A stretch of DNA of 24,000 bases from Flavobacteriales bacterium (GTDB lineage: Bacteria > Bacteroidota > Bacteroidia > Flavobacteriales_D > Parvicellaceae). Each line of letters opens with the position of its first letter. Position 1 is the first letter of the stretch. Shown piece by piece: positions 1,166 through 17,928 of the stretch. The notes below the pieces were generated by a model. That model was not told the origin of the DNA and ran no database searches. It saw only the letters and a program-made list of their open reading frames with translations. The translations under genes and the position numbers were made by a program. The stretch spans positions 20,790 to 44,789 of the forward strand of contig JAQWSL010000007.1 of assembly GCA_029243225.1 (NCBI GenBank), in the 5' to 3' direction.

Positions 1166-4108
1166 TTATTTCTTTTCTGCTTTTTCTATGGCATCTATGA
1201 AAACTCTTTGAATTCGAGTTCTAATATTCATTGTTATTAATTTTTTGTTTTCTGCATCTGGATATACTCTGTTGGAAAGAAAAACATAGACAAAACCATT
1301 TTCTGGATCGGCCCAGGTTAAAGTTCCTGTAAACCCAGAATGTCCGAAGCTACTGTAAGAAGCACAATTAAAACATGTAGGACCTCCTGCACTCCCTCTT
1401 ACAGGTTTGTCAAAAGCAATGCCCCTTCTATTTTTATTGCTTAGATAATATGGCGAGCTGGTAAATAGTTCAACTGTTTTTTTGTCGATAAGTGTGTCGC
1501 CACCATAAATCCCATTTTGCATAAATAGTTGCATCATTACCCCTAAATCATTAGAGTTAGAGAAAAGTCCAGCATGCCCTGCAACCCCACCCATCATCGC
1601 AGCTCCCTGATCATGAACATCTCCATGAATGAGCTGTTTTCTAAATGTTTGATCATCCTCAGTTGGAATAATTCGATCTAAGGACCATTTATTTCTTGGG
1701 TTATAGCCTATGTTTTTCAAACCTAATCTTGAATAATAGGTTTTGTCTACATATTCATCTTGAGACACTTTGGTAATATCTCTTATCATTTCGTTAACAA
1801 AATAATACCCTACATCGCTATATTTATATTTCTTTACTTTTAATAAATCAGTGTTAAGTATTCGTTTGAATATAGTATCTCGATAGTTTTCATTTATGAA
1901 TAAATTATTAGCTACACGTTTGTTAAAATAGGAAGACTTTTTAATGCTGTATATTTCATACTTAGGTTTTCCTTTATATAAAGTTTTAATGTAAAATGGT
2001 ATCCAAGGTGTTAATTTTGCTTGATGAGTAAGCATTTCTTTAAGAATGATTTTACCGTAGGCAGTAGAATCTACAAGCTGTGGAAGATAATCTCCTAGAG
2101 ATGAATCTAATGAGATTTTATCTTTTTGATGAAGATCCATAAGCGCTGCAGCTGAACTTGCTATTTTAGTAATAGATGCTAAATCATAAATATCTGAATT
2201 GTCAACAGGTTTTGATTTTTGGTCATAAGTATGTTTCCCATATGATTTATGAAAGAATACTTGACCGTCTTTAGCTGCATAAATTTGGCAACCAGGAAAC
2301 ACTTTTTCTTTGAAAGCTTCTTCAATAATACTGTCAATTTTAAGAAGATTTTTTGAATCTATTCCTATAGACTCTGGATATACATAAGACAATCTATTTT
2401 TAGAAGTAGAAAGCCCAAAACCTTCCTTGAAATTTTCATTAATAGAAACTGGTAATTTTCCTTTAGCACTTATTCCTCCAAATAATAATTGTCCTGTTAA
2501 CTCGTTTGGTGTTTTTTCATCTTCATAAGCAATTAAAACTCCATCTACTTTAGATATAGATTTAAATTTTGAAAGTGCGTAAGGAGATCCAAAAATATTT
2601 AAAATAATTTTGCTATGATCAACTATATCTTCACATAGCTGGTCTACTATTTTTGATAAACCAAAATTTTGATATGAATTTTGATTCATTTGGTAGACAT
2701 TAAGAATTATTAAATTATGATTCTTCAAATTCATAATTAAAGAGCTTAATTGCTCGTCAGTAGCTCTTTTTTGAATATTATATTCGTAAGACCTACAGTA
2801 TTTATTTATAGAGTTTTTAAATTCTTTTGAATTAGATTCTCCAATATTTACAGTAGCTATATTTAGGGTGTCAAGTCTAGTTATTGGAATAACATTGTTG
2901 TTTTTTATAACTGTTAATGCGTTTTTGTATAGCTCATGATTTAAATAAGAGGCATTGTAGGTATTCAAATCAGGAACTAAGTTTTCTTTATTTACTTTTT
3001 TATGTGAATATAATTTTAACCACTTTTTAGCGCTTAGTATTTTTTTAACTTTTTGGTCAATTTCATTAATTGTTAGTTCTGAGCTTTCGATTGCTTTTTT
3101 TATTTCAGCCACTGCTGCAGGTATGTCTTCTGGAATTAGTAAAATGTCATTTCCCGCTTTAAGAGCTTGAACATCGAGTTTTCCTTTTTCGTAGAATGCA
3201 CTAACGCCTCTCATGTTTAACCCATCTGTAAATATTAAACCTTTAAAGTTTAATTCTTTTTGGAGCAAGTCAGTTACTACTTTTTTGGAAAGAGTTGATG
3301 CCTTATTAGGTGTATTATCTAGTGTTGGTACATACAAATGAGCAACCATCATGGCTTTTAACCCACTATCAATTAATAGTTTAAAAGGATGTAATTCAAC
3401 AGAGTCTAATCTTTTTTTATTATGATATATAATGGGAAGTGTTTTATGTGAATCGCTGTCTGTATCTCCATGACCTGGGAAATGTTTGGCATTGGCTAAA
3501 ATATTTTGATTTTGTAGCCCTTTCATGTACATGAGCGATTTTTTAGCAACTTTATTTGGGTTTTCTCCAAAAGACCTAGAGTTTATTACAGGATTATTTG
3601 GGTTGTTATTAATGTCAACTACTGGTGCCATATTCATATTAACACCTAATCTTTTGCATTGTTTTCCAATTTCTTGTCCCATTTGATATATGAGATTGTT
3701 GCTTTGAATTGCTCCTAATGTCATTTGTTTAGGGAAAGCTATTGTACTATCTAGTCGCATGGATAGTCCCCATTCAGCATCTATTGAAATTAATAGTGGT
3801 ATTTTAGAAACGGATTGAAACTTATTAGTTAAATGTGCTTGTTTGTATGGACTTCCTTGGTAAAATATTATTCCGCCTATGTGGAATTCCTCTATCAATC
3901 TGGATATTTCTTTTTCGTGAGATAAATCCTTGTTAGAATAAGCAGCAACCATAAAAAGCTGACCTATTTTTTCATTAAGAGATAGGGAGTTAAAAACACT
4001 GTCGACCCAATCATTTTTTTCATCACTTGCTTGAATAATAGTTGATGAAAACATAAATGTGCTTACTAATAAGCTTTTAAAAATGATGTTTAACAATGTT
4101 TTATTCAT
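1166..4108 (-). CDS. Secreted fusion of a glycoside hydrolase family 3 (NagZ-like beta-N-acetylhexosaminidase) N-domain and a beta-lactamase-fold serine hydrolase C-domain
   Basis: N-terminal signal peptide (MNKTLLNIIFKSLLVSTFMFSSTIIQA). GH3 motifs KHFPGHGDTDSDSHKTLP and GLIFTDGLNM. C-terminal half has the serine-hydrolase triad of motifs: SITK (SxxK, nt 2165-2176), YSD (YxN-like) and HSG (KTG-like). ATG start at 4106-4108. Confidence 0.9.
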   Translation of the reverse strand: MNKTLLNIIFKSLLVSTFMFSSTIIQASDEKNDWVDSVFNSLSLNEKIGQLFMVAAYSNKDLSHEKEISRLIEEFHIGGIIFYQGSPYKQAHLTNKFQSVSKIPLLISIDAEWGLSMRLDSTIAFPKQMTLGAIQSNNLIYQMGQEIGKQCKRLGVNMNMAPVVDINNNPNNPVINSRSFGENPNKVAKKSLMYMKGLQNQNILANAKHFPGHGDTDSDSHKTLPIIYHNKKRLDSVELHPFKLLIDSGLKAMMVAHLYVPTLDNTPNKASTLSKKVVTDLLQKELNFKGLIFTDGLNMRGVSAFYEKGKLDVQALKAGNDILLIPEDIPAAVAEIKKAIESSELTINEIDQKVKKILSAKKWLKLYSHKKVNKENLVPDLNTYNASYLNHELYKNALTVIKNNNVIPITRLDTLNIATVNIGESNSKEFKNSINKYCRSYEYNIQKRATDEQLSSLIMNLKNHNLIILNVYQMNQNSYQNFGLSKIVDQLCEDIVDHSKIILNIFGSPYALSKFKSISKVDGVLIAYEDEKTPNELTGQLLFGGISAKGKLPVSINENFKEGFGLSTSKNRLSYVYPESIGIDSKNLLKIDSIIEEAFKEKVFPGCQIYAAKDGQVFFHKSYGKHTYDQKSKPVDNSDIYDLASITKIASSAAALMDLHQKDKISLDSSLGDYLPQLVDSTAYGKIILKEMLTHQAKLTPWIPFYIKTLYKGKPKYEIYSIKKSSYFNKRVANNLFINENYRDTIFKRILNTDLLKVKKYKYSDVGYYFVNEMIRDITKVSQDEYVDKTYYSRLGLKNIGYNPRNKWSLDRIIPTEDDQTFRKQLIHGDVHDQGAAMMGGVAGHAGLFSNSNDLGVMMQLFMQNGIYGGDTLIDKKTVELFTSSPYYLSNKNRRGIAFDKPVRGSAGGPTCFNCASYSSFGHSGFTGTLTWADPENGFVYVFLSNRVYPDAENKKLITMNIRTRIQRVFIDAIEKAEKK

Positions 4109-4272
4109 TGAAATGAATGAGTTTTTCTATAAAATTAGTATTACCCCTAATTGAAAGATTTGATTCTTTTATTTATTATTAACGTAAGAGTGTGAAGTGT
4201 ATTTTGCTATTTAATTATTAATGACAAGTCTTATTTTATTTATATTGTATAATTCTTAAAGAAAATCGTTTG

Positions 4273-7200
4273 ATGAATTATAGATTAAATATTGTTTTCT
4301 TGTTCTATTTAATCAATGTTGTTGTTTATTCACAACATACAAATTTTGAATTTTTTAGAACTAGTCCTGATGGATTAAGCCAATCAGTAGTTACAGATGT
4401 TATGCAGGACTCTAAGGGCGTGTTGTGGTTTTCGACTGAAGATGGATTGAATAGTTTTGATGGTGATGTTTTTAAGAGATTTTACAGGGAAGATGGTTTG
4501 TTGAGCCATGAAATTGAATGTGTTGTAGAAGGAGCTAATGAAGATTTATGGGTAGGCACACGAAGAGGATTAAATCTTATTAACAATAATAAGGTTGTTG
4601 CTCTTCCTTCGAAATTATTGGAGTCTTTGAAAAAATATACACACATAAATAAATTGTATTTTCTTTCAGATAGTTCTCTTGTTATAGCAACAGGCAGATT
4701 CAAGTCTAAATTACACATTTGGAATCAAAAGGAGATGAATGAACTGATCTTGCCATTAGAAGGTGAATACATTGTTAATTGTCTTATTGAACATGAAAAT
4801 GTATTATTTATTGGTACAAATAAAGGACTTGTTGCTTTTAAAGATGGTGTTTTTCAAGTGTTTAATGAGTCAAAAGATTTGCGAACTAATATTGTAAATT
4901 GTTTTTCAATTTTTAAAGACAATTTAATTATTGGTTCTAATAAGGGGTTGATTTTTCACAAAAACGACAGTTTTTTTTATGATTCTACTTTTTCAAATTT
5001 TGAAAATAAAAATATTTCAAATTTATCAAGCCATAACAATAGTCTTGTTTTTTCAGAATTTAAAGAGTTTGTTTACCTATATAAGGATTCTGAAATTCAA
5101 ATATTTGATAAATCTCAAGGGCTGTCATCTACTAAAATCAATGATTTGTTAATAGACAGAGAAGGTTCAATTTGGATTTCTTTTTCTGGTTTTGGGTTAG
5201 CTAAGTTTAGAGAAAAACCATTTATATCTTATGATGAATTTAATCGATTTGAATTAGGGCATGTAAACTCTATGTTTGTAGATAATGCTGAGAAGTTGTG
5301 GGTCGGAAGTACAAAGGGATTACAAGTTAAATTAAAGAATGAATTATATTTTAAAAGATATCTACCCAAGTATGATTTTGCCAATTGCAAAATTAAGTTC
5401 AATTCTGTTTCTTCTATTCTTGAAGATGTAAAAGAAAGAATTTGGATTTGTACTCCTATGTCAGCTATCATTATTTATGAAAACGATTCTTTTAGACAAC
5501 TAAATATTAAAGAAAATGAGTTAACCAATCTTGGTTTTGATCCTGAAACTGTTAAAAATATATTGAGTGTGATTAATGATCCTAGAACATTATGTTTAGA
5601 CAACAATGGATTTTTATGGATAGGCTCGTTTACAGATGGTATTGTTGTCTTAGATAAGAATCTAAATTGCATAAAATATTTAAGTAAAAAGAAAGGGCTC
5701 CGTGGAGATTTAATTCAATGTTTTTTTAAAGATTCTTATGGTAATATTTGGATTGGTTCAGCTAGTGGATTAACAAGAATATCAGGTGATTCAATTGAGA
5801 TATTTGATGATTATAAAGAGTTGAAAAAATCTACTTATTCAATAAAAGAGGATCATTTTGGTAATATTTTAGTTGCCACAGATTTTGGATTATATAAGTT
5901 ATTTCTAAATGATGACCAATTAATTAAACAAGTAAAACATTATGATATAAAAAATGGATTAGCTTCTTCTGTTGTTTATGCAATGGAAATAGATGATGCT
6001 GGTAATCTATATCTTGGAACAACTCTAGGAGTTGACAGGGTCACTAAAGAGTCATTTAATGATTATAACATTGTAAACAAGCATTATGGACCAGACGAAG
6101 GCTTTAAAGGGGTGGAATGCAATACCAATGCAAGTTTTAAGGATCACAATGGAGATTTATGGTTTGGAACTAATTCTGTTTCTAAGCTTAGAATTAATCT
6201 TGACGTTATCGATACTATTAAGCCAAATATATTTATTAATGATATTCGTTTAAATTATTTAAATGTTCCTTCATGGGATTTAAAAAATGGTTCTACTCAA
6301 AATATTTTAGGTTTTGATAAGCCCGTGTTTTTTTATAATCAAAATCATTTAACATTTGATTATAAAGCAATTACTAGTGTAAGTCCAAAAAACATAAGGT
6401 ATTCTTTTAAAATAGAGCCAATAGATGTAAAATGGAATCCTAAAACAAAACAACGTTTTAGTACTTATTCTAATTTGTCACCAGGTAGCTACACCTTCAA
6501 AGTTAAAGCTGAGAATATTGATAAAACTGAAAGTGAAATCGTTTCTTACTCTTTTCAAATTGCAAAACCTTGGTGGGATGAGTACTGGTTTTATTTAATT
6601 GAAGTATCCGCTGGGTTGTTATTAATTTTTGGTTTTATTTCAATTAGAGAAAGAAGGTTAAAGTTGAATCAAATGATTCTTGAGAAAAAAGTAAAGCAAA
6701 GAACATCTCAGTTAAATGCTGAAAAAGTAAAAGTTGAATCTCAAAATAAGGAAATTAAGAAAAGTATAAATTATGCGAGAAGAATACAGAACTCCATTCT
6801 TCCAGATGAAAGTTTAATGGATGATTATTTTGAAGATTTCATGGTTTTCTACCAACCAAAAGACATTGTTGGAGGTGATTTCTATTGGTTTAGGTGCTTT
6901 GGGAATATAAGTGTTATTGCATCAGTTGATTGTACAGGTCATGGAGTGCCTGGAGGGTTTATGAGTATGATGGGGAGTTTGTTGTTAGATAAGATTGTTC
7001 AATCACATAATCTAGAGACTTCTAAAATATTAAAAGATTTAAATTCAGAAATTGTTAGAGTATTGGATCAAGAAAGTGGTGGTGAAATTCAAGATGGTAT
7101 GGATATTTCATTATGTGTAATTGACAAGCAAAACAGGAAAGTTTCATTTAGTGGAGCCAGAAACGGAATAACAATAATAAGAGCAGATAAAATTGAGAAA

Positions 7201-7509
7201 TATGATGCAGATCTTTTTTCTGTTGGTGGTTCCTATACTAAAATTAGTAGAGAGTTGAAAAGAGATTTTAAGAGCTATTCTATTGATTTAGAACCTAATG
7301 ATTGGTTATATATGTATACAGATGGTTATTACGATCAGCTTGGAGAAAAGAAAATGAGATCTTTAGGTCTTAAGAAATTTGAAGAAATCATTAAAGAGTG
7401 TAGTTCATTCAAAGAAAATAAGAATCAATTTTTAAGCGAAAAATTTAATTTATGGAAAGGGGAGCTGCCACAAATTGATGATTTACTTATTATAGGATTT
7501 AAAGTTTAA
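4273..7509 (+). CDS. Membrane sensor phosphatase: signal/TM, beta-propeller (Reg_prop) repeats, Y_Y_Y domain, TM helix, coiled coil, PP2C/SpoIIE-type Ser/Thr phosphatase (SiaA/RsbU-like)
   Basis: Repeated xxDxxGxLWxGTxxGL propeller blades (e.g. DSKGVLWFSTEDGLNSF, NEDLWVGTRRGLNLI, HNGDLWFGTNS). Y_Y_Y signature IRYSFKIEPIDVKWNP...YSNLSPGSYTFKVKAEN. TM WFYLIEVSAGLLLIFGFISI (about nt 6590-6650). PP2C region nt 6766-7506 with INYARRIQNSILP, GGDFYWF, DCTGHGVPGGFMSM, DGMDISL, YTDGYYDQ, QIDDLLIIG. The track starts at TTG 4270; I prefer the adjacent ATG at 4273. Confidence 0.9.
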   Translation: MNYRLNIVFLFYLINVVVYSQHTNFEFFRTSPDGLSQSVVTDVMQDSKGVLWFSTEDGLNSFDGDVFKRFYREDGLLSHEIECVVEGANEDLWVGTRRGLNLINNNKVVALPSKLLESLKKYTHINKLYFLSDSSLVIATGRFKSKLHIWNQKEMNELILPLEGEYIVNCLIEHENVLFIGTNKGLVAFKDGVFQVFNESKDLRTNIVNCFSIFKDNLIIGSNKGLIFHKNDSFFYDSTFSNFENKNISNLSSHNNSLVFSEFKEFVYLYKDSEIQIFDKSQGLSSTKINDLLIDREGSIWISFSGFGLAKFREKPFISYDEFNRFELGHVNSMFVDNAEKLWVGSTKGLQVKLKNELYFKRYLPKYDFANCKIKFNSVSSILEDVKERIWICTPMSAIIIYENDSFRQLNIKENELTNLGFDPETVKNILSVINDPRTLCLDNNGFLWIGSFTDGIVVLDKNLNCIKYLSKKKGLRGDLIQCFFKDSYGNIWIGSASGLTRISGDSIEIFDDYKELKKSTYSIKEDHFGNILVATDFGLYKLFLNDDQLIKQVKHYDIKNGLASSVVYAMEIDDAGNLYLGTTLGVDRVTKESFNDYNIVNKHYGPDEGFKGVECNTNASFKDHNGDLWFGTNSVSKLRINLDVIDTIKPNIFINDIRLNYLNVPSWDLKNGSTQNILGFDKPVFFYNQNHLTFDYKAITSVSPKNIRYSFKIEPIDVKWNPKTKQRFSTYSNLSPGSYTFKVKAENIDKTESEIVSYSFQIAKPWWDEYWFYLIEVSAGLLLIFGFISIRERRLKLNQMILEKKVKQRTSQLNAEKVKVESQNKEIKKSINYARRIQNSILPDESLMDDYFEDFMVFYQPKDIVGGDFYWFRCFGNISVIASVDCTGHGVPGGFMSMMGSLLLDKIVQSHNLETSKILKDLNSEIVRVLDQESGGEIQDGMDISLCVIDKQNRKVSFSGARNGITIIRADKIEKYDADLFSVGGSYTKISRELKRDFKSYSIDLEPNDWLYMYTDGYYDQLGEKKMRSLGLKKFEEIIKECSSFKENKNQFLSEKFNLWKGELPQIDDLLIIGFKV

Positions 7510-7847
7510 ATTCCTTTAAACTCAAAAGGAACATCAACTAAGATTTCTAATTCTCTTCCTCTATCATACATGATAATATGATCTTTTGGATACTTCCAAA
7601 TTGCTTTGCCTTTTCCTCCTTCTAGTTTTGATAAAAGCTGAATGAATTGTTTTGCGGAAGATGAATTGAAATATGAAAGCTCAAAAACTAATGTTAATAG
7701 TTGATGCTTTGTTTTAAAATAATTGTCGATCTGATCTTTAACATCTTTATAAAAATCTATTGCATCTTCCATCATAGAAATACCAGAAATGGATAACACA
7801 TTATTTTGAGTATCTAGATTTATTAAAGTTTGGCCAAAGTGTTCCAT
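7506..7847 (-). CDS. DUF1987 / SiaC-like regulatory phosphoprotein (partner-switch substrate)
   Basis: 113 aa with the DUF1987 pattern as I recall it: ISGISMMEDAIDFY ... FELSYFNSSSAKQFIQLLSKLE ... IWKYPKD ... VPFEF. ATG start lies 6 nt after the stop of the upstream kinase-like gene. Its stop overlaps the stop of the convergent phosphatase gene. Confidence 0.8.
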   Translation of the reverse strand: MEHFGQTLINLDTQNNVLSISGISMMEDAIDFYKDVKDQIDNYFKTKHQLLTLVFELSYFNSSSAKQFIQLLSKLEGGKGKAIWKYPKDHIIMYDRGRELEILVDVPFEFKGI

Positions 7848-7853
7848 ATTTTA

Positions 7854-8942
7854 TTAAATGTATTTAGGTATAAAAATACCCATATTTAAGTAAATTCCAT
7901 TGTCAATGTTATGAATTTCAAAATCTATTTTTGAATGATTATACCTTCTAATATCTATTAATCCAACTCCTGCACTGTTGTTCTCAATAAAGGAATTTTC
8001 TTTTAAGGCTTTAAGGTACTGAGTTGTTAGTTCTCCAACAGAATAAGCATTTATCTTAGAAATGAATTCTTCCATTTCAGCATAATCTCCACTTTTCAGA
8101 AAATTACCTGTACTCATGTAAAAGCCATCTTTGTTTTTAAAAATACAAAACGACCCATGCAGAACGTTATTTACTTTTTTCCCATGCCGAGAAATATTCT
8201 GAATCAGTTCAACTCCAGTATGAAACATTCTAAAATAATTAACATTTTTTTTCCTTGAATATTTTGGAATATTAGCTTTTAAAATAGCCAACAAAGCTTT
8301 AATGTTTTCTTTAGAAAAATTGCCATTATAAAAAAACATAACATCATTTTTTCTAAGCATAGAGTAAATTTCAATATTTTCTTCAATTTTATTTTTTTCA
8401 ATTAGCTGTAAAGTTTCACCTTTTAATTTGGCTAAATCAATTTGATAGCTGAATTGATACGAATCCGAACTTAATTTTTGGAAATCTTTTTGTATTGGGT
8501 TTTTTGATTTTCTAGCCATTTCTATTAAGCCAAGTCCACCGCCACCCTTTTCTGTAAAAGCACCATTTTTTAATATGTCTCTATATAATTCTTTTAATTG
8601 ATTCTCATCAAGAGAATTCAATTCGGAGAGCCTAGTACTCAAAAATTCATATGCTGTTAATCCAATCTTATTTGATGAGAAAATATGGATGCTATCTTCT
8701 AAGTTTCTTACCCCAAAACAGTCATTTTTCACTTTCTCATCTGAGTATCGGACAATGTTTTGAAAAACTTCAACCATTAAAAAAGATAATTTTTTCTTTA
8801 CTGCCTGACTTGATTCATGTTTAGCAAGAGATACAATAAATTCTGAAAAATGATCATTTAGTAATCCATTGTAATAAATACTTAGAGTATCTCTTCTGAA
8901 ATAATCTTTAATTTTAAATATTTTATTAAGATAGCTTTTCAA
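7854..8942 (-). CDS. Tandem double SiaB-like GHKL-fold Ser/Thr protein kinase (two RsbW/SpoIIAB/SiaB-type domains in one chain)
   Basis: The two halves align with each other. N half (about nt 8403-8942): IYYNGLLN, VEVFQNIVRYS, FSSNKIG, EKGGGGLGLIEMARKS. C half (about nt 7857-8402): FFYNGNFS, VELIQNISRHG, MSTGNFL, NNSAGVGLIDIRRYN. ExxxNxxxH/Y resembles the GHKL N-box and the Gly-rich GLGL/GVGL the G2 box. The first in-frame start is TTG at 8940-8942, with an upstream stop at 8958-8960 and no nearby ATG, so the start is slightly uncertain. Confidence 0.7.
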   Translation of the reverse strand: MKSYLNKIFKIKDYFRRDTLSIYYNGLLNDHFSEFIVSLAKHESSQAVKKKLSFLMVEVFQNIVRYSDEKVKNDCFGVRNLEDSIHIFSSNKIGLTAYEFLSTRLSELNSLDENQLKELYRDILKNGAFTEKGGGGLGLIEMARKSKNPIQKDFQKLSSDSYQFSYQIDLAKLKGETLQLIEKNKIEENIEIYSMLRKNDVMFFYNGNFSKENIKALLAILKANIPKYSRKKNVNYFRMFHTGVELIQNISRHGKKVNNVLHGSFCIFKNKDGFYMSTGNFLKSGDYAEMEEFISKINAYSVGELTTQYLKALKENSFIENNSAGVGLIDIRRYNHSKIDFEIHNIDNGIYLNMGIFIPKYI

Positions 8943-9084
8943 ATGTTGTTTTAATTCTTAAGGTGATTATCTCAATTAAAATACTCTATTTGTTTGAAAG
9001 TAATCAGCAAGTTTGTTGTTTAAGTGTTACAATTTGTTCTTAAAAGTTATTGGAAATAATAATTTCCTATAATTTATGGAAATA

Positions 9085-10575
9085 TTAAATACATTTAACT
9101 TCTAGGGTTAATTTATTTAGTATTTCAACCATAGCCAAGGTATCTAATTTGCAGTATTCTAGTAAATCTTTTCTCGCGTTTTGATTGTTGCCTTTAAAAG
9201 TTCCGCTCATCATTTGAGAAAAGGTGTGACTAGCCATACCGCCCTCCTTAATTGTTAAACTTTCATAAGATAAATTGTTTATCATAGCAGGTAGAACGTT
9301 TTTAATTGAGTAAGAGCCTTTCATTTCTTTTTTATAGTACCATTTTTTTTGGAATGGAACCATTAAGTCTTTAATCCTAGAAATAAGTTGTTTTAATTCG
9401 ATTTCATACTCAGGAAATGCTTCTGCTAACTGTTTTATTTTGCTGCTTTCAAAACTTTTGTTATAAACAATAATATCCCCTGATCCTCTACAGGATTTAA
9501 TTAAATTTTTAATAAAATTTAATCTAGGATCAGAGCCATCTGCAACTGCCAAATGTTCATAATGAGTGGTTTTACCATTCCTTTCTTTTTGAATGTGTAA
9601 AGAAAATTGAAAAACCATGTGTTCATAAGGTTTTGAGTTGTTGAAAATTGGCACAGCAGAACTAAATGTTTCAAAATCTAGATAATATAAAGGGAGTTGA
9701 AGTTCTGAAATGAAATTTGATATTTTAATTTCATTAATTATTTTTTCGTTTGATTGCTCACATGAAACTTGAATTTTTTGATTCTTACTAAGTGGATAAT
9801 CTGTTGGGATATCATCTATTTTTAGAATTCCCTTTTTAAAAAGATCAAATTTCTTTTCTTGACTAAGGTTAGAAATATCAAAAACTGAATATTTAGGAAT
9901 GTTTTCCCAGCAATTGCCAATGAAATCACAGTTGTATGGTGATGTACAATGGGGACCTATATCTTTTGGAGGAATGTCTTTTTGATTTAATATTTTTTTT
10001 TGATTTTCAATCTCTTTAGAAATATCCATCTCTATTTTTGAAATTTCATCTTTTACTGAAGTAACTGTAAAGAGTTTTTCTAAATCGAGCTCATTTTTTT
10101 TAACATATTTATTATTAATGTGAACAATAAAAACATCTTCTAATTTTAGACCCGAATTTTCAATAACATAAGATTGAATTGCCGCATCATTAATGTGAGT
10201 TTTAGAAATACTTGTTGAGCTTTTAACTTCATAAGCTTTCCAACCATTTTCATTTTTAACTAAAATGTCTAAAATTGCTAATACACCATTAAATTGAAAT
10301 GCAGCTTCGTAAATTACTTTTTTACCTCCGTGAATACACAATTGAGTTTTTTTTATTGCATCTTCAAAATTATAAAATGTTTTAGTAGTACAATCTATTC
10401 CATTGGGGAATAGCTGCTGAGCTAATTCACCGACCATATCACCTTGATTGAAAATTGCTTTCTGCATTTCAGAAAGTTCATCTTTAAGGTCTCTATTGTG
10501 TTTGTTTAAGTAGAGTGATTTTGAACATTTTAAACCTCTTATAAAGGTTGATTTGGACAATACATGTTTTTGCAT
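9085..10575 (-). CDS. DUF2779-family protein: N-terminal Cas4/RecB-like PD-(D/E)xK nuclease fold with a 4-Cys cluster, plus a C-terminal DEDD-like (RNase H fold) exonuclease-like domain
   Basis: The N-terminus MQKHVLSKSTFIRGLKCSKSLYL is typical of DUF2779 as I recall it. D...EVK nuclease motif (LAILDILV...WKAYEVKSS, about nt 10211-10285). Cys17 plus CTSPYNCDFIGNC (nt 9907-9948). C-terminal YYLDFETF (DxE), VYNKSFES and EYCKLDTLAM (Yx3D). Confidence 0.75.
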   Translation of the reverse strand: MQKHVLSKSTFIRGLKCSKSLYLNKHNRDLKDELSEMQKAIFNQGDMVGELAQQLFPNGIDCTTKTFYNFEDAIKKTQLCIHGGKKVIYEAAFQFNGVLAILDILVKNENGWKAYEVKSSTSISKTHINDAAIQSYVIENSGLKLEDVFIVHINNKYVKKNELDLEKLFTVTSVKDEISKIEMDISKEIENQKKILNQKDIPPKDIGPHCTSPYNCDFIGNCWENIPKYSVFDISNLSQEKKFDLFKKGILKIDDIPTDYPLSKNQKIQVSCEQSNEKIINEIKISNFISELQLPLYYLDFETFSSAVPIFNNSKPYEHMVFQFSLHIQKERNGKTTHYEHLAVADGSDPRLNFIKNLIKSCRGSGDIIVYNKSFESSKIKQLAEAFPEYEIELKQLISRIKDLMVPFQKKWYYKKEMKGSYSIKNVLPAMINNLSYESLTIKEGGMASHTFSQMMSGTFKGNNQNARKDLLEYCKLDTLAMVEILNKLTLEVKCI

Positions 10576-10610
10576 GTATGTAAATTACAAAATCAAATAA
10601 GATTTTATTA

Positions 10611-11762
10611 CTATTTGTTGCTAATAAATTTTGAAGAAAAAAGATTTCGTTTGTTATCCTCAATTAATATAAAATAGATACCTTTTTTATAGTAATTGTT
10701 TAGCATGATTTGATCATTGCTAATGTCTTTGATAAATGTAATTTCTTTACCTAAATTATTGATGATCTTTAAGCGGTAAGGTTTCTTAATTTTATTAGTT
10801 ACTTCAATCACGAAATTTGTTTCAATTGGATTGGGCATTACTTTAATGTATTTAGATTCTTGTATGTTATTTTCATTAATTGAAGAAACAATGCCATTTA
10901 ACATACTAACAACTTCGTTAGTATTCCCTAAATCGTAAAAATCTACAGTTAAAAAATTGGGAAATTTGTTTTTTTCAATTTGACATTGAAGCGCTCTATT
11001 AATAAAAAAAGGATTTGAATTAGCTACAGACGATGCATTTTCATCTCCTGTTCCAAGTATAGTTGTTACAAAATGATTGAAAATAAATAAATCATTTATT
11101 GAATCTCCTCTGTTAAAGTCACAATTAAAGTCATTTTGATTATTTACTGAATAATGTGTTTCTACTGCATAATCCCATACATAATGATACCATTGTTGAT
11201 TAGCTGTTGCATCATCAACATCTGAAAAAATTACTAATCTGGTGTTGTTGTTTATCATATTTTGTAAAGTAGGCCACGAACTTGTTGTGTCGTGTGTATA
11301 AAGAAAAGTGTTTAACCCAGATTGATTAATTACACTTTCAATAGAATTTGCATCTGTATAGCATTCAAAAATAATAGTAACAACTTCATTCGTGTTGGTG
11401 GCTAAAAACTGATTAATTTGATTTAAGTAATCAATTAAAGGATTAGACCCGAGAATTGCAGATCCATGATATACCATAGGTGTTCCACCACTATCGTAAA
11501 CATCAAGCATTAATGCTCTTACACCATTATTAAGTTGTGTCACAATGTTGAAATTCTGATTTGGTAAACTAAAATTACCTTCTGCTGAATTAAATGAATT
11601 GTGTGTTGTAAGATACGCTACAGTATTGTAGGTTTTGTTGCATAAACTAGCAGAGCCATTGCATTGAGCTTTTGCTGTAAAAGAAAATAATATTACTATA
11701 ATTGAGAAAATTAATTTCAATGAATAAGTTTTAAATTTCAACACCAATAACAAGAACATCAT
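10611..11762 (-). CDS. Secreted PI-PLC X-domain-like phosphodiesterase with a T9SS type A C-terminal sorting domain
   Basis: Signal peptide ending FSFTAKA-QC. PLC-like TIM-barrel motifs YLTTHNSFNS, GVRALMLDVY and MVYHGS. C-terminal 80 aa is a Por_Secre_tail-like CTD. The ATG at 11762 overlaps the upstream gene by 32 nt. An in-frame TTG at 11741 would give a more canonical signal peptide (MKFKTYSLKLIF...) and an 11-nt overlap. Confidence 0.8.
   Translation of the reverse strand: MMFLLLVLKFKTYSLKLIFSIIVILFSFTAKAQCNGSASLCNKTYNTVAYLTTHNSFNSAEGNFSLPNQNFNIVTQLNNGVRALMLDVYDSGGTPMVYHGSAILGSNPLIDYLNQINQFLATNTNEVVTIIFECYTDANSIESVINQSGLNTFLYTHDTTSSWPTLQNMINNNTRLVIFSDVDDATANQQWYHYVWDYAVETHYSVNNQNDFNCDFNRGDSINDLFIFNHFVTTILGTGDENASSVANSNPFFINRALQCQIEKNKFPNFLTVDFYDLGNTNEVVSMLNGIVSSINENNIQESKYIKVMPNPIETNFVIEVTNKIKKPYRLKIINNLGKEITFIKDISNDQIMLNNYYKKGIYFILIEDNKRNLFSSKFISNK
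10614..10853 (-). other. T9SS type A C-terminal sorting domain (Por_Secre_tail-like) of the PLC-like protein
   Basis: KYIKVMPNPIETNFVIEV...GIYFILIEDNKRNLFSSKFISNK. The PNP-x-x-x-hydrophobic start and the GxY-hydrophobic-K/R ending are typical of type A CTDs. Confidence 0.75.
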
Positions 11763-14700
11763 CTAATTGTTCTTCATTTTTTTTCCAAGAATTGAACTTT
11801 TCCTTAAAGATATCCTTTTGTTTATTTAATGGAGTTTTGTCTAATTCTAAAATTAATTCTTTAAATCTTCTAATTAGAAATTTTTTATTTTTTTCCCCTC
11901 CAAATTGATCAATATACCCATCAGAGAACATGTAAATTCTATCTCCTTTCTTAATAGGAATCTCTAGCTCAATTGGTGTCTCATTTCTTTGATTCATCTC
12001 TCCAACAGAACACGGCATGGATTCGAAAGTATGTATTTCTTCCCCATCCCATAAAATAATGGGTCTCCTTGCACCAGAAAAAGTAAATATATTTTCATTT
12101 TGGTTAAAGGCACAGATTGATAAATCTATACCATCTTTCTGAAAAGAATCTCCACTTCTATGAATTGAATTATAGATTCCAATGTCTAAAAGTTCTAAAG
12201 CCAAGCCCGGAGAGTTTACTTTTGGATCTAAAATAATTTGATTCATTAACTCACTTCCTAACATCGAAAGAAATGCTCCAGGAATTCCATGACCTGTACA
12301 ATCGGCACATGCAATTATTAGGTAATCACCTTTTTTCTTAAACCAATAAAAGTCTCCACTTACGATGTCTCTTGGTTGGTTGTAAATAAAAAAGTCAGAA
12401 AAAAAAGATTCTAAAATTTTCACATTTGGAAGCACTGCTTGTTGAATGTTCTTTGCGTAATTAATGCTATCTGTAATGTTGTTATTTTTGAGTTCTATGA
12501 TTTCTTTTTGTTTGGTCACTTTTATTTTTTCTTTATTTAATTCTCTTGTGCGTAATTCAACTTTTTCTAATAATAAAACACGATTTTTCTCTGCCTTTAT
12601 GCTTCTGAATTTTAATACTAGATAAAACGAAATGAGAACTACAAAGCAAATTAATATTATGAACCATTCTCTTTCCCAAAAGGGAGGGATGATTTCAAAT
12701 TCATAACTGATTAAATCAGATTCAACCATATCTCCATTGGCCCCTTTAATATATAAAGTGTATTTTCCTGAAGGTAAGTAAGAATAGATTGCTCTATTTC
12801 TTTTACTCCAAGGAGACCAGTCTTTATCAAAATTTTTTAATTTATAGCTGTATGTAACTTGATGGGGATTTCCAAAATGCAAACCAATGAATTCAAATGA
12901 TAGATGATTCTCTGTATGTTTAAACTTCTTCTTAGAATTTTCAATTTCGTTTTTAAGAAATAATTTTTTACTTGTAAAATGCATTAAAGGCGGAATAGAA
13001 TCAAAAGTTATTTCTTTAGCGTTACACTTAATTGCTCCCTTAACTGTACCAAACCATAAATCACCATTTTTATCTTTGAATTTTGCATTTTGATTTGTTT
13101 CAACTCCAGTGAAACCTTGATTTATTCCATAATGTTTGAATAAGTTTTTATTTCCAGTTGAATTAGAACCTGTTGTGTCACTGATAACATCTAATCCAGA
13201 ATTTGTGCCTACCCAAACTTTACCGAAATTATCTGCAATTATTAGGTAAGGGTTGTTAGAGCTTAATCCGTTTTTAGAATCAAACTGTATGAATTTTGTA
13301 CCATCGTATTTAAAAATACCTCCTCCGATAGTACCTACCCAAATATTTCCATTAATGTCTTCAGTAATACTTCCAGCTCTTAGATTAAGGAGTCCATCTT
13401 CATGGTTTAGTGTTTGAAAACCCTCACCATCCCAAACTGAAACCCCAGCATCATCAGAACCAAAATATACTAATCCCTTTTTTGAGGAGAATACTGTCCA
13501 AAACTTGTTGCTACAAAGACCGTCAGATTTAAAGAATGATTCAATTTGAATTTCTTTTAGAGATATGTCAATTTTGCTAATACCATTGTTATAGCTCGCC
13601 AGCCAAATAAATCCATTAATGTCTTGACAAATACTAATTATATAATTGTCAGATATTCCATCCTCAGTTGTTAAATGCTGAACTAGATTGAAATTTTCAT
13701 CAATTATATAGACTCCATCATTAGTGCCAAGCCATATGTTATTTTTATTATCTTCAAAAACAGATCTTAAATTATTTAATTTAAAATTGAATAATTTACT
13801 TACATGGATTATGTCAGTAGTTGATTTTCTCTTTTTATTATCAATTAATATTACATCTAATTCACTTTTTGCACCAACCCATAATCGGTTGTTGTGATCC
13901 ATTAAAAGTGTTGTAACTTGATTGTTCTGAAGCCCATAAAATTTATCGTAAGCCTGAAACTTTGCTGTAATAACTTGCGAAACACCATCGCCTTCAGAAC
14001 CGATCCATAAATTGTTTTCATTGTCAAAAAGTATGGTGTTTATCTTGTTTGAGAGTAAATTATTTTTTGTAGTTAATGCTTGGATATAATTTTCTTTAAA
14101 AATTAGAGCACCATTTTCTTTATTTGAAACATAAATTTCATTGGTTTTTGAAATTGCAATATCTGTAAATGTGTTTTCAAGGCTGATTTCTGAAACAACT
14201 TCATTTTCTTTGAAGAAAGTTAATCCTTTTGATGAAATAACAATTAATTCATTATTAGTGTCCCAGTCAAAGTCATAAACTATTGATTGGTCCAATAGTT
14301 TTGATTTGAATTTTAAATTCTCATCTAGAATAATAAGTCCATTACTTGTTGCTATATATAGTTGTTTGTTATTGGATTTAATTTCATTAAGTCTAGTGAG
14401 TTTGTTAGTGTCAACAGAGATAACATTTTTAATGTGTATTGAGTCGTTTGTTAATTCTAAATTGAAAATACCATCAGAGGAGCTAATTCCCATCACGCCA
14501 TTCTTCCAATTTGTTAAAGCAATAATATCGGAGTTTAATTCTTTAGGATGATTGTTAAATATCTTGTTTTTGGAAATACAAGAAAAACCATCATATCTAT
14601 GTCCAGTCCAAATGTTACTGTAATTATCTTCGCAAATAGCTTTAACATGATTATCTGCTAAATTGTTTTTTTGACTGAAAGTGTTAAAATCTATTCCGTT

Positions 14701-14880
14701 AAACCTTGAAACCCCTCCTTGTGTTCCAAGCCAAATGAACCCTTTTGAGTCTTGAAATATATCGTATACACTAGATTGAGGAAGTCCTTCAGCTAAATTG
14801 AAGTTTTTAAAATTGAATTGTTGTGCATATGAATTTAATATGAGATGAATACAAATAAGTATTACAAAACTTTTTTTCAT
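11731..14880 (-). CDS. Second membrane sensor phosphatase, paralogous in architecture to 4273-7509: signal peptide, beta-propeller repeats, Y_Y_Y, TM, coiled coil, PP2C/SpoIIE phosphatase
   Basis: Signal peptide MKKSFVILICIHLILNSYAQ. Propeller blades (DSKGFIWLGTQGGVSRF, NENNLWIGSEGDG, KNGDLWFGTVKG). Y_Y_Y VTYSYKLKNFDKDWSPW...YSYLPSGKYTLYIKGAN. TM WFIILICFVVLISFYLVLKF. PP2C region nt 11734-12465 with INYAKNIQQAVLP, SGDFYWF, DCTGHGIPGAFLSM, DGIDLSI, FSDGYIDQ, QLDDVLVIG. Confidence 0.9.
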   Translation of the reverse strand: MKKSFVILICIHLILNSYAQQFNFKNFNLAEGLPQSSVYDIFQDSKGFIWLGTQGGVSRFNGIDFNTFSQKNNLADNHVKAICEDNYSNIWTGHRYDGFSCISKNKIFNNHPKELNSDIIALTNWKNGVMGISSSDGIFNLELTNDSIHIKNVISVDTNKLTRLNEIKSNNKQLYIATSNGLIILDENLKFKSKLLDQSIVYDFDWDTNNELIVISSKGLTFFKENEVVSEISLENTFTDIAISKTNEIYVSNKENGALIFKENYIQALTTKNNLLSNKINTILFDNENNLWIGSEGDGVSQVITAKFQAYDKFYGLQNNQVTTLLMDHNNRLWVGAKSELDVILIDNKKRKSTTDIIHVSKLFNFKLNNLRSVFEDNKNNIWLGTNDGVYIIDENFNLVQHLTTEDGISDNYIISICQDINGFIWLASYNNGISKIDISLKEIQIESFFKSDGLCSNKFWTVFSSKKGLVYFGSDDAGVSVWDGEGFQTLNHEDGLLNLRAGSITEDINGNIWVGTIGGGIFKYDGTKFIQFDSKNGLSSNNPYLIIADNFGKVWVGTNSGLDVISDTTGSNSTGNKNLFKHYGINQGFTGVETNQNAKFKDKNGDLWFGTVKGAIKCNAKEITFDSIPPLMHFTSKKLFLKNEIENSKKKFKHTENHLSFEFIGLHFGNPHQVTYSYKLKNFDKDWSPWSKRNRAIYSYLPSGKYTLYIKGANGDMVESDLISYEFEIIPPFWEREWFIILICFVVLISFYLVLKFRSIKAEKNRVLLLEKVELRTRELNKEKIKVTKQKEIIELKNNNITDSINYAKNIQQAVLPNVKILESFFSDFFIYNQPRDIVSGDFYWFKKKGDYLIIACADCTGHGIPGAFLSMLGSELMNQIILDPKVNSPGLALELLDIGIYNSIHRSGDSFQKDGIDLSICAFNQNENIFTFSGARRPIILWDGEEIHTFESMPCSVGEMNQRNETPIELEIPIKKGDRIYMFSDGYIDQFGGEKNKKFLIRRFKELILELDKTPLNKQKDIFKEKFNSWKKNEEQLDDVLVIGVEI

Positions 14881-16872: not shown

Positions 16873-17928
16873 TTAGAGATTATTTGTCTTAATAAATCCT
16901 TTGGATCCTCTAGATTTAAAAAGTGCATTTCTGGTATTTGCCCATTGAAACGAAATTTCAAATCCACCAGAATTTGCTTGGCTAATTTCTGAAACTGAAA
17001 GTTCGTAAAGCAATCCAATTTTACAACTTCCAAATTCAACCATAATTTGAGGCGCAATGGCATCTTTAAGGCGATGAATTAAGCCAAAGCCAAAGTATGA
17101 TTCTGTATATATTCCTGTGTATTTAGTTCCATTTCTAAGCCTTGCTTTCATCATGGCATTTATTAATAACATTTGATGAGGTCCTTGATTCATGAAAACA
17201 AAAGAAACTGCTGAAGCCCATTCAGAATTTGGTATATCAAGCTGCGCACCTGAATGAATTACAAGTTTAGCATCTAGCTTATCTTCATTACCATTAGAGA
17301 ATTTTAATTGAGGTTGAGAAACATGAAAATAAGCAACACCAGCATAGATATTGGATAGCTCATTTCTAGTTAAATTATTTTTTTTACCGCTATAACTGTA
17401 AAAAACTCCAGCGCCAAAATCTTCATGAAAGAAAGAAGAATTTGAAGAAGATTCATTAGAGTTAATGTTAGAATCAAAAGAAGTTCCGTCAAATTGGTTA
17501 CCCCAACTTAAATTGCCTAATTTTCCTGTTCTTTGTACTGCCCCCATTTGAATTGCTGCCGAAACAGTTTGATTTTCAGCAATTGGAATAATTCCGGAAA
17601 TGGAAAAATTTAGTTGGTTAATTCCAAATTGACCTTCACCTGCTATATCATTGAAAAAAGACAAACCTAATCCTAAATAACTCTTTTGTTTTCCGTTGTC
17701 ATTCTTTAAAAGATTCATGTCAAATGAAAATTGAGAAGTCATATAAGATTTATCAATGCCTAGCCACTGTTTTCTGTTCGATATAGTTACTCTTTCCCAA
17801 CCATTGAAAACACCTATTGATGCAGGGTTGATAAGTTGAGGTACAAAAGTGCTTTGAGCAAAATGTACATCTTGTGCTTTAAAATTAAAGCAGGTGAAAA
17901 TTAATAGTAAATAAATTAACTTTTTCAT
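16873..17928 (-). CDS. PorP/SprF-family type IX secretion system outer-membrane protein
   Basis: N-terminus MKKLIYLLLIFTCFNFKAQDVHFAQSTFVPQLINPASIGVFNGWERVTISNRKQWLGI is the canonical PorP/SprF opening (QD-HFSQ-like ... NPA ... YR.QW). The start ATG overlaps the TGA of the upstream type B CTD gene (ATGA at 17925-17928). Confidence 0.9.
   Translation of the reverse strand: MKKLIYLLLIFTCFNFKAQDVHFAQSTFVPQLINPASIGVFNGWERVTISNRKQWLGIDKSYMTSQFSFDMNLLKNDNGKQKSYLGLGLSFFNDIAGEGQFGINQLNFSISGIIPIAENQTVSAAIQMGAVQRTGKLGNLSWGNQFDGTSFDSNINSNESSSNSSFFHEDFGAGVFYSYSGKKNNLTRNELSNIYAGVAYFHVSQPQLKFSNGNEDKLDAKLVIHSGAQLDIPNSEWASAVSFVFMNQGPHQMLLINAMMKARLRNGTKYTGIYTESYFGFGLIHRLKDAIAPQIMVEFGSCKIGLLYELSVSEISQANSGGFEISFQWANTRNALFKSRGSKGFIKTNNL

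Follow-up and report, generated by a model that had tools for sequence, protein, structure and literature searches.

In Pseudomonas aeruginosa, the SiaABCD system (PA0172-PA0169) joins a membrane sensor with a PP2C-type phosphatase domain (SiaA), a GHKL-like kinase (SiaB) and a small DUF1987 phosphoprotein (SiaC) to the diguanylate cyclase SiaD. The partner switches RsbU/RsbV/RsbW and SpoIIE/SpoIIAA/SpoIIAB are likewise built from a PP2C phosphatase, a GHKL Ser kinase and a small phospho-Ser protein, and SiaC is structurally STAS-like (PMC7647112, PMC8457831). DUF1987 proteins are widespread and may regulate adjacent proteins (PMC8457831; eLife 2021, SiaC-SiaD), the sole job described for them being the activation of SiaD in Pseudomonas. 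Here, we describe a Sia-like module in a stretch of 24,000 nucleotides (nt) from a marine Flavobacteriales bacterium of the Parvicellaceae (assembly GCA_029243225.1, contig JAQWSL010000007.1, positions 20,790 to 44,789 of the forward strand), hereafter called the window. The module comprises two sensor phosphatases (A and B), a tandem SiaB-family kinase and a SiaC-like protein, and no cyclase is encoded with them. We consider it likely that these proteins form a Ser/Thr partner switch of the SiaABC type, one that combines the inputs of several sensor phosphatases and whose target is encoded at an unlinked site and is not a diguanylate cyclase.

We listed the open reading frames (ORFs) of the window with translations of at least 80 amino acids (aa) and compared them with Pfam and NCBIfam at curated cut-offs. 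Relatives were collected by a genome scan with one genome per species, which gave at least 409 confirmed relatives (individual loci are cited by L numbers). A first-pass annotation, made from the letters alone, had read 7506-7847 as a DUF1987 protein, 7854-8942 as a duplicated SiaB-like kinase and the outer two genes as sensor phosphatases with propeller and Y_Y_Y domains; profile hidden Markov models (HMMs) placed the first two in the SiaC and SiaB families, the latter with two domains, and both PP2C domains of the phosphatases are SiaA-like with intact motifs. The SiaC-like protein matches PF09345 (SiaC/DUF1987; E = 5.5e-22; 78.1 bits against a cut-off of 24.5) over aa 8-111 of 113. Its residues Y59-F60-N61-S62 (YFNSSS) align with YLNTSS of P. 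aeruginosa SiaC (6KKO_C/6K4F), with Ser62 opposite Thr68. In all 71 of 71 nonidentical Bacteroidota homologues, position 62 is Ser (55) or Thr (16), and Y59 and N61 are invariant. Ser62 is therefore the predicted phospho-acceptor, situated in the same Y-x-N-[ST] motif as in SiaC, although most Bacteroidota members have Ser where SiaC has Thr. Of 672 matches to a profile made from 24 diverse SiaC-like proteins, the best 120 were all single-domain proteins of 120-131 aa; no fusion protein among these 120 offered a Rosetta-stone clue to a partner.

The kinase gene lies directly 5' of the SiaC-like gene, the same order as in SiaABCD. Its product is matched in two stretches by both PF19788 (DUF6272; E = 1.8e-49; 167 bits against a cut-off of 26.6) and the NCBIfam model SiaB_fam_kinase (NF038262; 186.8 bits against 85). 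Unlike the kinase of SiaABCD, it is a tandem duplication in one chain, with two complete GHKL-like SiaB domains at approximately aa 1-175 and 185-362. Each half scores as a complete single SiaB and has its own E-x-x-Q-N box (E58/N62 and E245/N249) and Gly-rich lid (K132-GGGGLGL and A324-GVGLID); single-domain SiaBs, in turn, match both half-profiles. The halves align with each other over 177 columns at 19% identity (hhalign probability, 100%). All of the 59 tandem kinases compared keep E58, N62, E245 and N249, and E245 aligns with the Glu of SiaB in IEMTQNI; the proposed catalytic Glu of SiaB is E61 (PMC7647112). Because both halves keep the Glu and the Asn, neither is an obvious pseudokinase. 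Half 1 is the more constrained of the two, with 25 versus 10 positions conserved at ≥90% and a mean column entropy of 1.92 versus 2.34.

An AlphaFold2 model of the kinase forms one compact object (pLDDT, 84.9; pTM, 0.85). Its best Foldseek matches in the PDB are SiaB chains (6KKO_A and 6KKO_B; TM-score of 0.83 on the target; probability, 1.00), followed by GHKL kinases, including the anti-sigma kinases SpoIIAB and UsfX (TM-scores of 0.5-0.65 on the target). Given that SiaB of P. aeruginosa acts as a dimer (PMC7278518), the tandem kinase is most simply read as a probable covalent pseudo-dimer, the single-chain equivalent of the SiaB homodimer. The weak fold likeness to SpoIIAB and UsfX and a tandem chain that mimics a dimeric kinase recall the Rsb and SpoII switches. 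The module nevertheless differs from these in its families (DUF1987 and DUF6272), in the lack of a Pfam STAS or HATPase_c_2 match in the window and in having no sigma factor nearby.

Both sensor phosphatases have the same layout: an N-terminal signal or anchor, a double Reg_prop propeller with a Y_Y_Y domain, one transmembrane (TM) helix (aa 772-792 in A and 737-761 in B), a helical linker and a SiaA-type PP2C domain. The Pfam matches exceed the curated cut-offs in both A (Reg_prop, 4.5e-37 and 122 bits; Y_Y_Y, 1.4e-12 and 48 bits; SpoIIE, 1.9e-14 and 54 bits) and B (Reg_prop, 2.9e-39 and 129 bits; Y_Y_Y, 5.4e-11 and 43 bits; SpoIIE, 1.2e-11 and 45 bits). The N-termini were read as signal-like hydrophobic stretches from the sequence, that of A lying below the threshold of the TM scan. 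As judged from the sequence, the approximately 750 aa of propeller and Y_Y_Y are extracytoplasmic, and the helical linker and PP2C domain are cytoplasmic. The sole PDB sequence match of both PP2C domains is the PP2C domain of SiaA (6K4E; E = 3.6e-35 for A and 9.7e-33 for B). The metal-binding residues of SiaA are D457, D474, G477, D600, G601 and D653 (PMC7647112). Both domains keep the motifs that bind Mg/Mn, GDFY, DC(T)GHG, (T/S)DG and DD, which in A read GDFY, DCTGHGVPG, TDGYxDQ and DD.

Phosphatases A and B are 31% identical over 1090 columns (BLASTP). A-type orthologues occur at 58-83% identity in L001, L006 and L008 and at 36-60% in L011, L002 and L014, and B-type orthologues (56-90% identity) occur in L001, L006 and L008 only; in these relatives, A and B remain approximately 31% identical to each other. 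B is an orthologue lineage of its own, and a younger one. Separate A and B lineages in the relatives imply that both copies have been maintained since before those lineages split, and the two sensors have probably diverged enough to respond to different ligands. The sensor part differs from that of SiaA: in place of the SiaA periplasmic domain, there is a Reg_prop/Y_Y_Y sensor here and a TPR sensor in relatives. The extracytoplasmic part instead resembles hybrid two-component system (HTCS) sensors of the BT4663 type, which have a double Reg_prop propeller and Y_Y_Y followed by one TM helix, but a PP2C phosphatase takes the place of the HisKA-HATPase-REC-AraC cassette. In HTCS proteins, the double Reg_prop and Y_Y_Y module binds oligosaccharides. 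By this likeness, the sensor ligands are probably glycans. In L006 (CALSPA010000012.1), each of the two sensor phosphatase genes (at 5621-7228 and 11434-13767) is broken into two ORFs, which reflects either assembly frameshifts or a recent pseudogenization of both inputs.

Compared with the equivalog models of the Pseudomonas proteins, the window proteins score 190 bits (A) and 165 bits (B) for SiaA (NF038263; cut-off, 700; only model positions 385-657 covered), 79.9 bits for SiaB (NF038264; cut-off, 225; a 362-aa tandem rather than a single domain of ~180 aa) and 42.2 bits for SiaC (NF038265; cut-off, 150). As all three lie under the equivalog cut-offs, none is an orthologue of its Pseudomonas counterpart.

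The kinase has 651 database homologues; the best 120 are nearly all tandem proteins of ~360 aa from Flavobacteriales and other Bacteroidia metagenome-assembled genomes (MAGs), and some are already named "SiaB family protein kinase" by NCBI. The best 80 loci of the genome scan come from Bacteroidota (Flavobacteriales, Bacteroidales, Cytophagales, Sphingobacteriales and Chitinophagales), save one MAG labelled Gammaproteobacteria. In the latter (L063; JBLHIB010000014.1), the context proS-...-tandem SiaB-SiaC-PP2C-rpsT-RadC is that of the Flavobacteriales loci L057, L079, L080 and L084, and because its flanks match these loci, the contig is probably mis-binned. The nearest relatives by kinase identity are CALSPA010000012.1 (89%; L006) and a Parvicellaceae MAG (70%), whose locus is fully syntenic with the window. 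Carriers that are not labelled as MAGs include Cesiribacter andamanensis AMV16, Nafulsella turpanensis ZLM-10 and Flavobacteriales bacterium DA487.

A set of 86 loci, which represent 52 lineages after dereplication at 60% kinase identity, yielded 1,262 ORFs for clustering. Only three clusters were common across the loci: tandem SiaB, SiaC and PP2C. SiaC lies directly 3' of the tandem kinase in 39 of the 49 dereplicated lineages with room for it, with two more found by a six-frame search. A PP2C gene is adjacent in 26/43 lineages and within 10 kb in 31/43, and it is convergent in 18. These adjacencies of SiaB with SiaC and with PP2C show that the gene arrangement is not due to chance, and the neighborhood conservation that the first-pass annotation had put forward for checking was found across Bacteroidota. 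The number of adjacent PP2C copies varies from zero (17 lineages) and one (17) to two (5), three (3) or four (1), and the linked proteins carry propeller/Y_Y_Y sensors, TPR sensors or, as bare PP2C proteins of ~366 aa, no sensor. Several phosphatases per kinase/substrate pair are therefore a family trait rather than a peculiarity of the window. Two of the departures from SiaABCD claimed earlier, the pair of input phosphatases and the kinase duplicated within one chain, are real and general in the family. SiaABCD itself has one phosphatase, encoded first in a co-directional operon, whereas the phosphatase genes here (two in the window and zero to four in relatives) are convergent or separate.

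Eight loci (L030, L033, L042, L049, L059, L060, L061 and L069) yielded no SiaC-like ORF in a six-frame HMM search of 6-21 kb per locus. All but L059, whose kinase is split into two ORFs, have a full tandem SiaB; in place of SiaC, L042 and L049 share convergent neighbors of 344 and 132 aa. Tandem SiaBs without SiaC could be orphan paralogues with another substrate. A conserved ORF of 76 aa with no Pfam match lies directly 5' of the tandem kinase in L001 (9764-9994; 6 nt away), the relative at 70% identity, and in L008, the relative at 53%; none was called in L006 or in the window, where the gap at this place measures only 142 nt. Three clusters of small upstream ORFs considered as module genes, c34 (~230 aa), c35 (~100 aa) and c70 (76 aa), were rejected: they are lineage restricted, match nothing in Pfam or NCBIfam and correspond to none of the ORFs called in the window.

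One feature that separates this module from SiaABCD is the lack of the defining linked output. Pfam revealed no GGDEF, sigma, anti-sigma, STAS or DNA-binding domain in the ORFs of the window. For a wider census, we took the two nearest nonmodule genes on each side of the module in the 52 lineages (150 proteins) and found no recurrent GGDEF, sigma-70, STAS or HTH family by Pfam; besides Por_Secre_tail, the sorting domain of the type IX secretion system (T9SS), each family accounted for ≤4 of the 150. A conserved fourth gene was likewise rejected, as no cluster beyond SiaB, SiaC and PP2C was present in more than 12 of the 86 loci, and the recurrent minor clusters encode housekeeping functions or T9SS cargo (PKD cargo, ferritin, thioredoxin-like, DinB, epimerase, rpsT, RadC, polA and proS). 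The co-encoded GGDEF diguanylate cyclase that marks SiaABCD is thus absent both from the window and from the families that recur in the 52 lineages. With no recurrent output-type gene in these lineages, the missing output is real and general, as the first-pass annotation had supposed for the window, and no characterized output gene adjoins the homologues elsewhere.

Single-SiaB proteins of Cytophagales have a more constant setting. A conserved cluster of nine genes (Table 1) was present in 5/5 successful SiaC look-ups and in three genome loci. This CheR-CheB-GAF-PP2C-SiaB-SiaC-ABC cluster has the same three protein families as the tandem module and belongs to the same phylum, and in four genomes, the tandem SiaB, SiaC and convergent PP2C lie immediately beyond it. 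It differs in its single 180-aa SiaB, its cytoplasmic dCache/GAF/PAS sensor phosphatase and its co-directional operon, in which a TerB-ABC-ABC2 exporter is always 3' of SiaC; the cluster is absent from the window. The position of the exporter suggests a possible output class.

The Cytophagales cluster unites chemotaxis-type methylation enzymes, a Sia-like switch and an exporter and appears to be undescribed. Its ~300-aa protein is lipoprotein-like, and its ~145-aa protein is secreted. The lipoprotein-like family 3' of the exporter (c7), which has no Pfam or NCBIfam match, also occurs in the Flavobacteriales loci L034, L041, L044 and L053, three to five genes 5' of the tandem kinase and directly after polA, and in L038 and L050, likewise 5' of the tandem kinase. 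In one Bacteroidales sublineage (L026, L028, L029 and L032), a gene for a REC-coiled-coil-class III adenylate/guanylate cyclase (PF00072 and PF00211) lies about three genes 5' of the kinase in divergent orientation, separated from the SiaB/SiaC pair by genes that read as PBP1a-like and Zn-ADH-like. The architecture of this cyclase recalls the stalk-GGDEF protein SiaD.

In the partner switch that we favor, the tandem SiaB kinase would phosphorylate the SiaC-like protein on Ser62, and the two membrane-anchored phosphatases would strip this phosphate through their SiaA-type PP2C domains upon meeting extracytoplasmic ligands. With two phosphatases with diverged sensors acting on Ser62, the phosphorylation state of the SiaC-like protein would sum several outside signals. 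Its unphosphorylated form would then bind and control a target encoded elsewhere rather than a co-encoded diguanylate cyclase. The identity of the domains, the conservation of catalytic and acceptor residues, the topology in the membrane and the conserved core of three parts are shown by the data above, whereas we infer the phosphotransfer in this module (from homology), the direction of signaling, the ligand class and the separate target. Several points weigh against this scheme. We found no biochemical work on the Bacteroidota SiaB/SiaC family in the literature, and the window proteins lie far below the SiaA, SiaB and SiaC equivalog cut-offs. The 17 of 43 dereplicated lineages without an adjacent PP2C gene indicate that phosphatase linkage is frequent but not obligatory, and about eight loci have tandem SiaB but no SiaC within 10 kb. 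Glycans as ligands are an analogy to hybrid two-component sensors and not a result. Finally, the lack of an adjacent output fits both a target encoded elsewhere and a kinase that is itself the effector.

The latter option would resemble RsbW and SpoIIAB: one kinase half, probably the N-terminal one, would phosphorylate the SiaC-like protein, and the other would sequester a target such as a sigma factor or an enzyme, with unphosphorylated SiaC-like protein as the antagonist that displaces the target. The unequal conservation of the halves fits such a sub-functionalization, and the fold also resembles that of anti-sigma kinases. The main reason for keeping this explanation is that single-SiaB modules adjoin a candidate output (SiaD or the TerB-ABC exporter), whereas tandem-SiaB modules have none. 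Yet the catalytic Glu and ATP-binding Asn are kept in both halves, the genes near the module include no recurrent sigma factor, the output in P. aeruginosa is not a binding partner of SiaB (PMC7278518) and a covalent pseudo-dimer accounts for the duplication without any new function, all of which make it improbable. We think it somewhat less probable still that the output is of a known class dispersed elsewhere in the genome; candidates would be GGDEF proteins, class III cyclases that have a coiled-coil stalk and ABC-2 exporters that have a TerB domain. In SiaD, SiaC binds a dimeric coiled-coil stalk (PMC8457831), and the cyclase of the Bacteroidales sublineage and the exporter of the Cytophagales cluster would suit this idea; the synteny of the cyclase is, however, limited to one closely related group, the candidate genes are absent from the window and from L001, L006 and L008 and no candidate family recurs across lineages. 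Moreover, Asp79, through which P. aeruginosa SiaC contacts SiaD (PMC8457831), corresponds to position 73 of the SiaC-like protein, which is variable among homologues; this is weak evidence for a partner other than SiaD.

The module might also regulate its strand-mates, namely, T9SS cargo (the phospholipase C [PLC]-like protein and a PKD protein) or the T9SS itself. The PLC-like cargo gene overlaps the phosphatase B gene, and L001, L006 and L008 retain this pair, so that the association of the module with T9SS cargo in strand and gene run, claimed in the first-pass annotation, stands among close relatives. It does not stand for the family: although Por_Secre_tail was the top family among flanking genes (8/150), it was also present in 4/150 control genes taken at least five genes away in the same loci (P = 0.38 by Fisher's test), and we rejected a family-wide enrichment of T9SS cargo. 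The cargo families vary between lineages, most loci lack the DUF2779 and PLC-like genes and a cytoplasmic phosphoprotein of 113 aa has no evident route to secreted cargo short of an intermediary, which together make such regulation highly improbable. A broader proposal, doubtful although less so than these alternatives, is that tandem SiaB/SiaC is a Bacteroidota-wide hub whose output logic is unlike that of described partner switches, with up to four sensor phosphatases converging on one phospho-site. Either the kinase would be asymmetric, one half phosphorylating SiaC and the other holding a phylum-conserved target, or the target of SiaC would be of a class new to DUF1987, neither a nucleotide cyclase nor a sigma factor.

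The gene coordinates and spacings of the first-pass annotation were reproduced by the mechanical ORF list (Table 1). On the minus strand, the PLC-like gene overlaps the 3' end of the sensor phosphatase B gene by 32 nt and is followed after 35 nt by the DUF2779 gene, which precedes the kinase gene by 142 nt; the SiaC-like gene follows 6 nt later. Other lineages have the kinase-SiaC pair by itself or downstream of unrelated genes, and the 142-nt gap is the probable promoter region of a kinase/SiaC bicistron. The sensor phosphatase A gene converges on the SiaC-like gene, and both stop codons lie within the palindrome TTTAAA (window 7506-7509). As overlapping stops leave no space for terminators, the two transcripts must overlap as antisense RNAs. 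The 4-nt overlap of these convergent genes is also seen in relatives down to 48% kinase identity (L001:11438-11441 and L002:11434-11437), and in L004, the genes are separated by a 5-nt gap instead. A scan for sigma-70 promoters and terminators gave sites no more numerous than in shuffled sequence, although the consensus may not suit Bacteroidota. Rfam and tRNA scans of the window gave no match; with no Rfam family present, there is no cyclic di-GMP riboswitch.

Table 1. Features of the Sia-like module and its passenger genes in the window, and the gene order of the Cytophagales cluster
Feature	Position	Strand	Basis or content
Sensor phosphatase A (PP2C-A)	4270..7509, first ATG 4273	+	Pfam, NCBIfam SiaA model, 6K4E alignment
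SiaC-family (DUF1987) phosphoprotein, 113 aa	7506..7847	-	PF09345
Tandem SiaB-family kinase, 362 aa, TTG start	7854..8942	-	PF19788, NF038262
AT-rich gap, 142 nt, 5' of kinase gene	8943..9084	-	Sequence
DUF2779/RecB-Cas4-like nuclease-fold protein	9085..10575	-	PF11074, 1.4e-45, 155 bits
PI-PLC-X-like secreted enzyme with type A T9SS sorting domain	10611..11762	-	PF00388, PF18962
Sensor phosphatase B (PP2C-B)	11731..14880	-	Pfam, 6K4E alignment
Cytophagales cluster, gene order	L086-L090 (e.g., L087:1486-13212), L048, L051, L070		CheR, CheB, GAF protein, (dCache/GAF/PAS)-PP2C (SpoIIE), single SiaB (180 aa), SiaC (120 aa), TerB-like ABC/ABC2 exporter (~1040 aa), ~300 aa, ~145 aa

Two genes that the first-pass annotation had counted within the tight run of the module proved to be passengers that are absent from most loci. 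The DUF2779 gene was found only in L001, L006 and L007; it is missing from L008, where the rest of the arrangement is kept, and from all more distant loci, and it lies outside the conserved module. The PLC-like protein has PI-PLC-X (PF00388; 1.9e-08; 34.5 bits) and Por_Secre_tail (PF18962; 1.8e-06; 28.5 bits) domains. Its pairing with phosphatase B was found only in L001, L006 and L008, and the gene is a lineage-specific companion of sensor B.

The remaining genes of the window encode a signal peptidase, WbqC, a GH3-beta-lactamase fusion, a PKD T9SS cargo protein, PorP/SprF, a CotH-CHU_C protein, an acyltransferase, an aminotransferase and BamD/YfiO. The fusion (1166-4108, minus strand; 980 aa) joins a NagZ-like GH3 domain to a beta-lactamase-fold serine hydrolase, and its gene is divergent from that of sensor phosphatase A, with 162 nt between them. 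A homologue occupies the same position in L001, L002, L006, L008 and L011; that of L002 has the beta-lactamase part only (Pfam), and the shorter homologue of L011 (615 aa) suggests likewise. The CotH-kinase-like protein (16873-20444, minus strand) has a lamin-tail domain and a type B (CHU_C) T9SS signal. Its gene is translationally coupled, by a 4-nt overlap, to the PorP/SprF-family gene, a synteny kept in L001, and the two fit the customary match between a type B cargo protein and a PorP-like partner dedicated to it.

The pathway had been thought to look uncharacterized, and our literature search agrees: we found no report on a Bacteroidota Sia-like system, with Pseudomonas work only. What is new is a conserved Bacteroidota version without the cyclase, present in at least 409 species-level genomes that range from marine Flavobacteriales to gut-type Bacteroidales. 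The chemistry is the expected one, and orphan partner switches are not rare, but the question is well defined, phylum-wide and experimentally tractable. The tandem kinase offers a natural test of whether the halves of a GHKL dimer can take different roles, and the module could show several HTCS-type outward sensors feeding one Ser/Thr switch rather than a His-Asp relay. The identity of the target would reveal the process under the control of this phospho-switch in Bacteroidota, which dominate the turnover of polysaccharides in the oceans and in guts.

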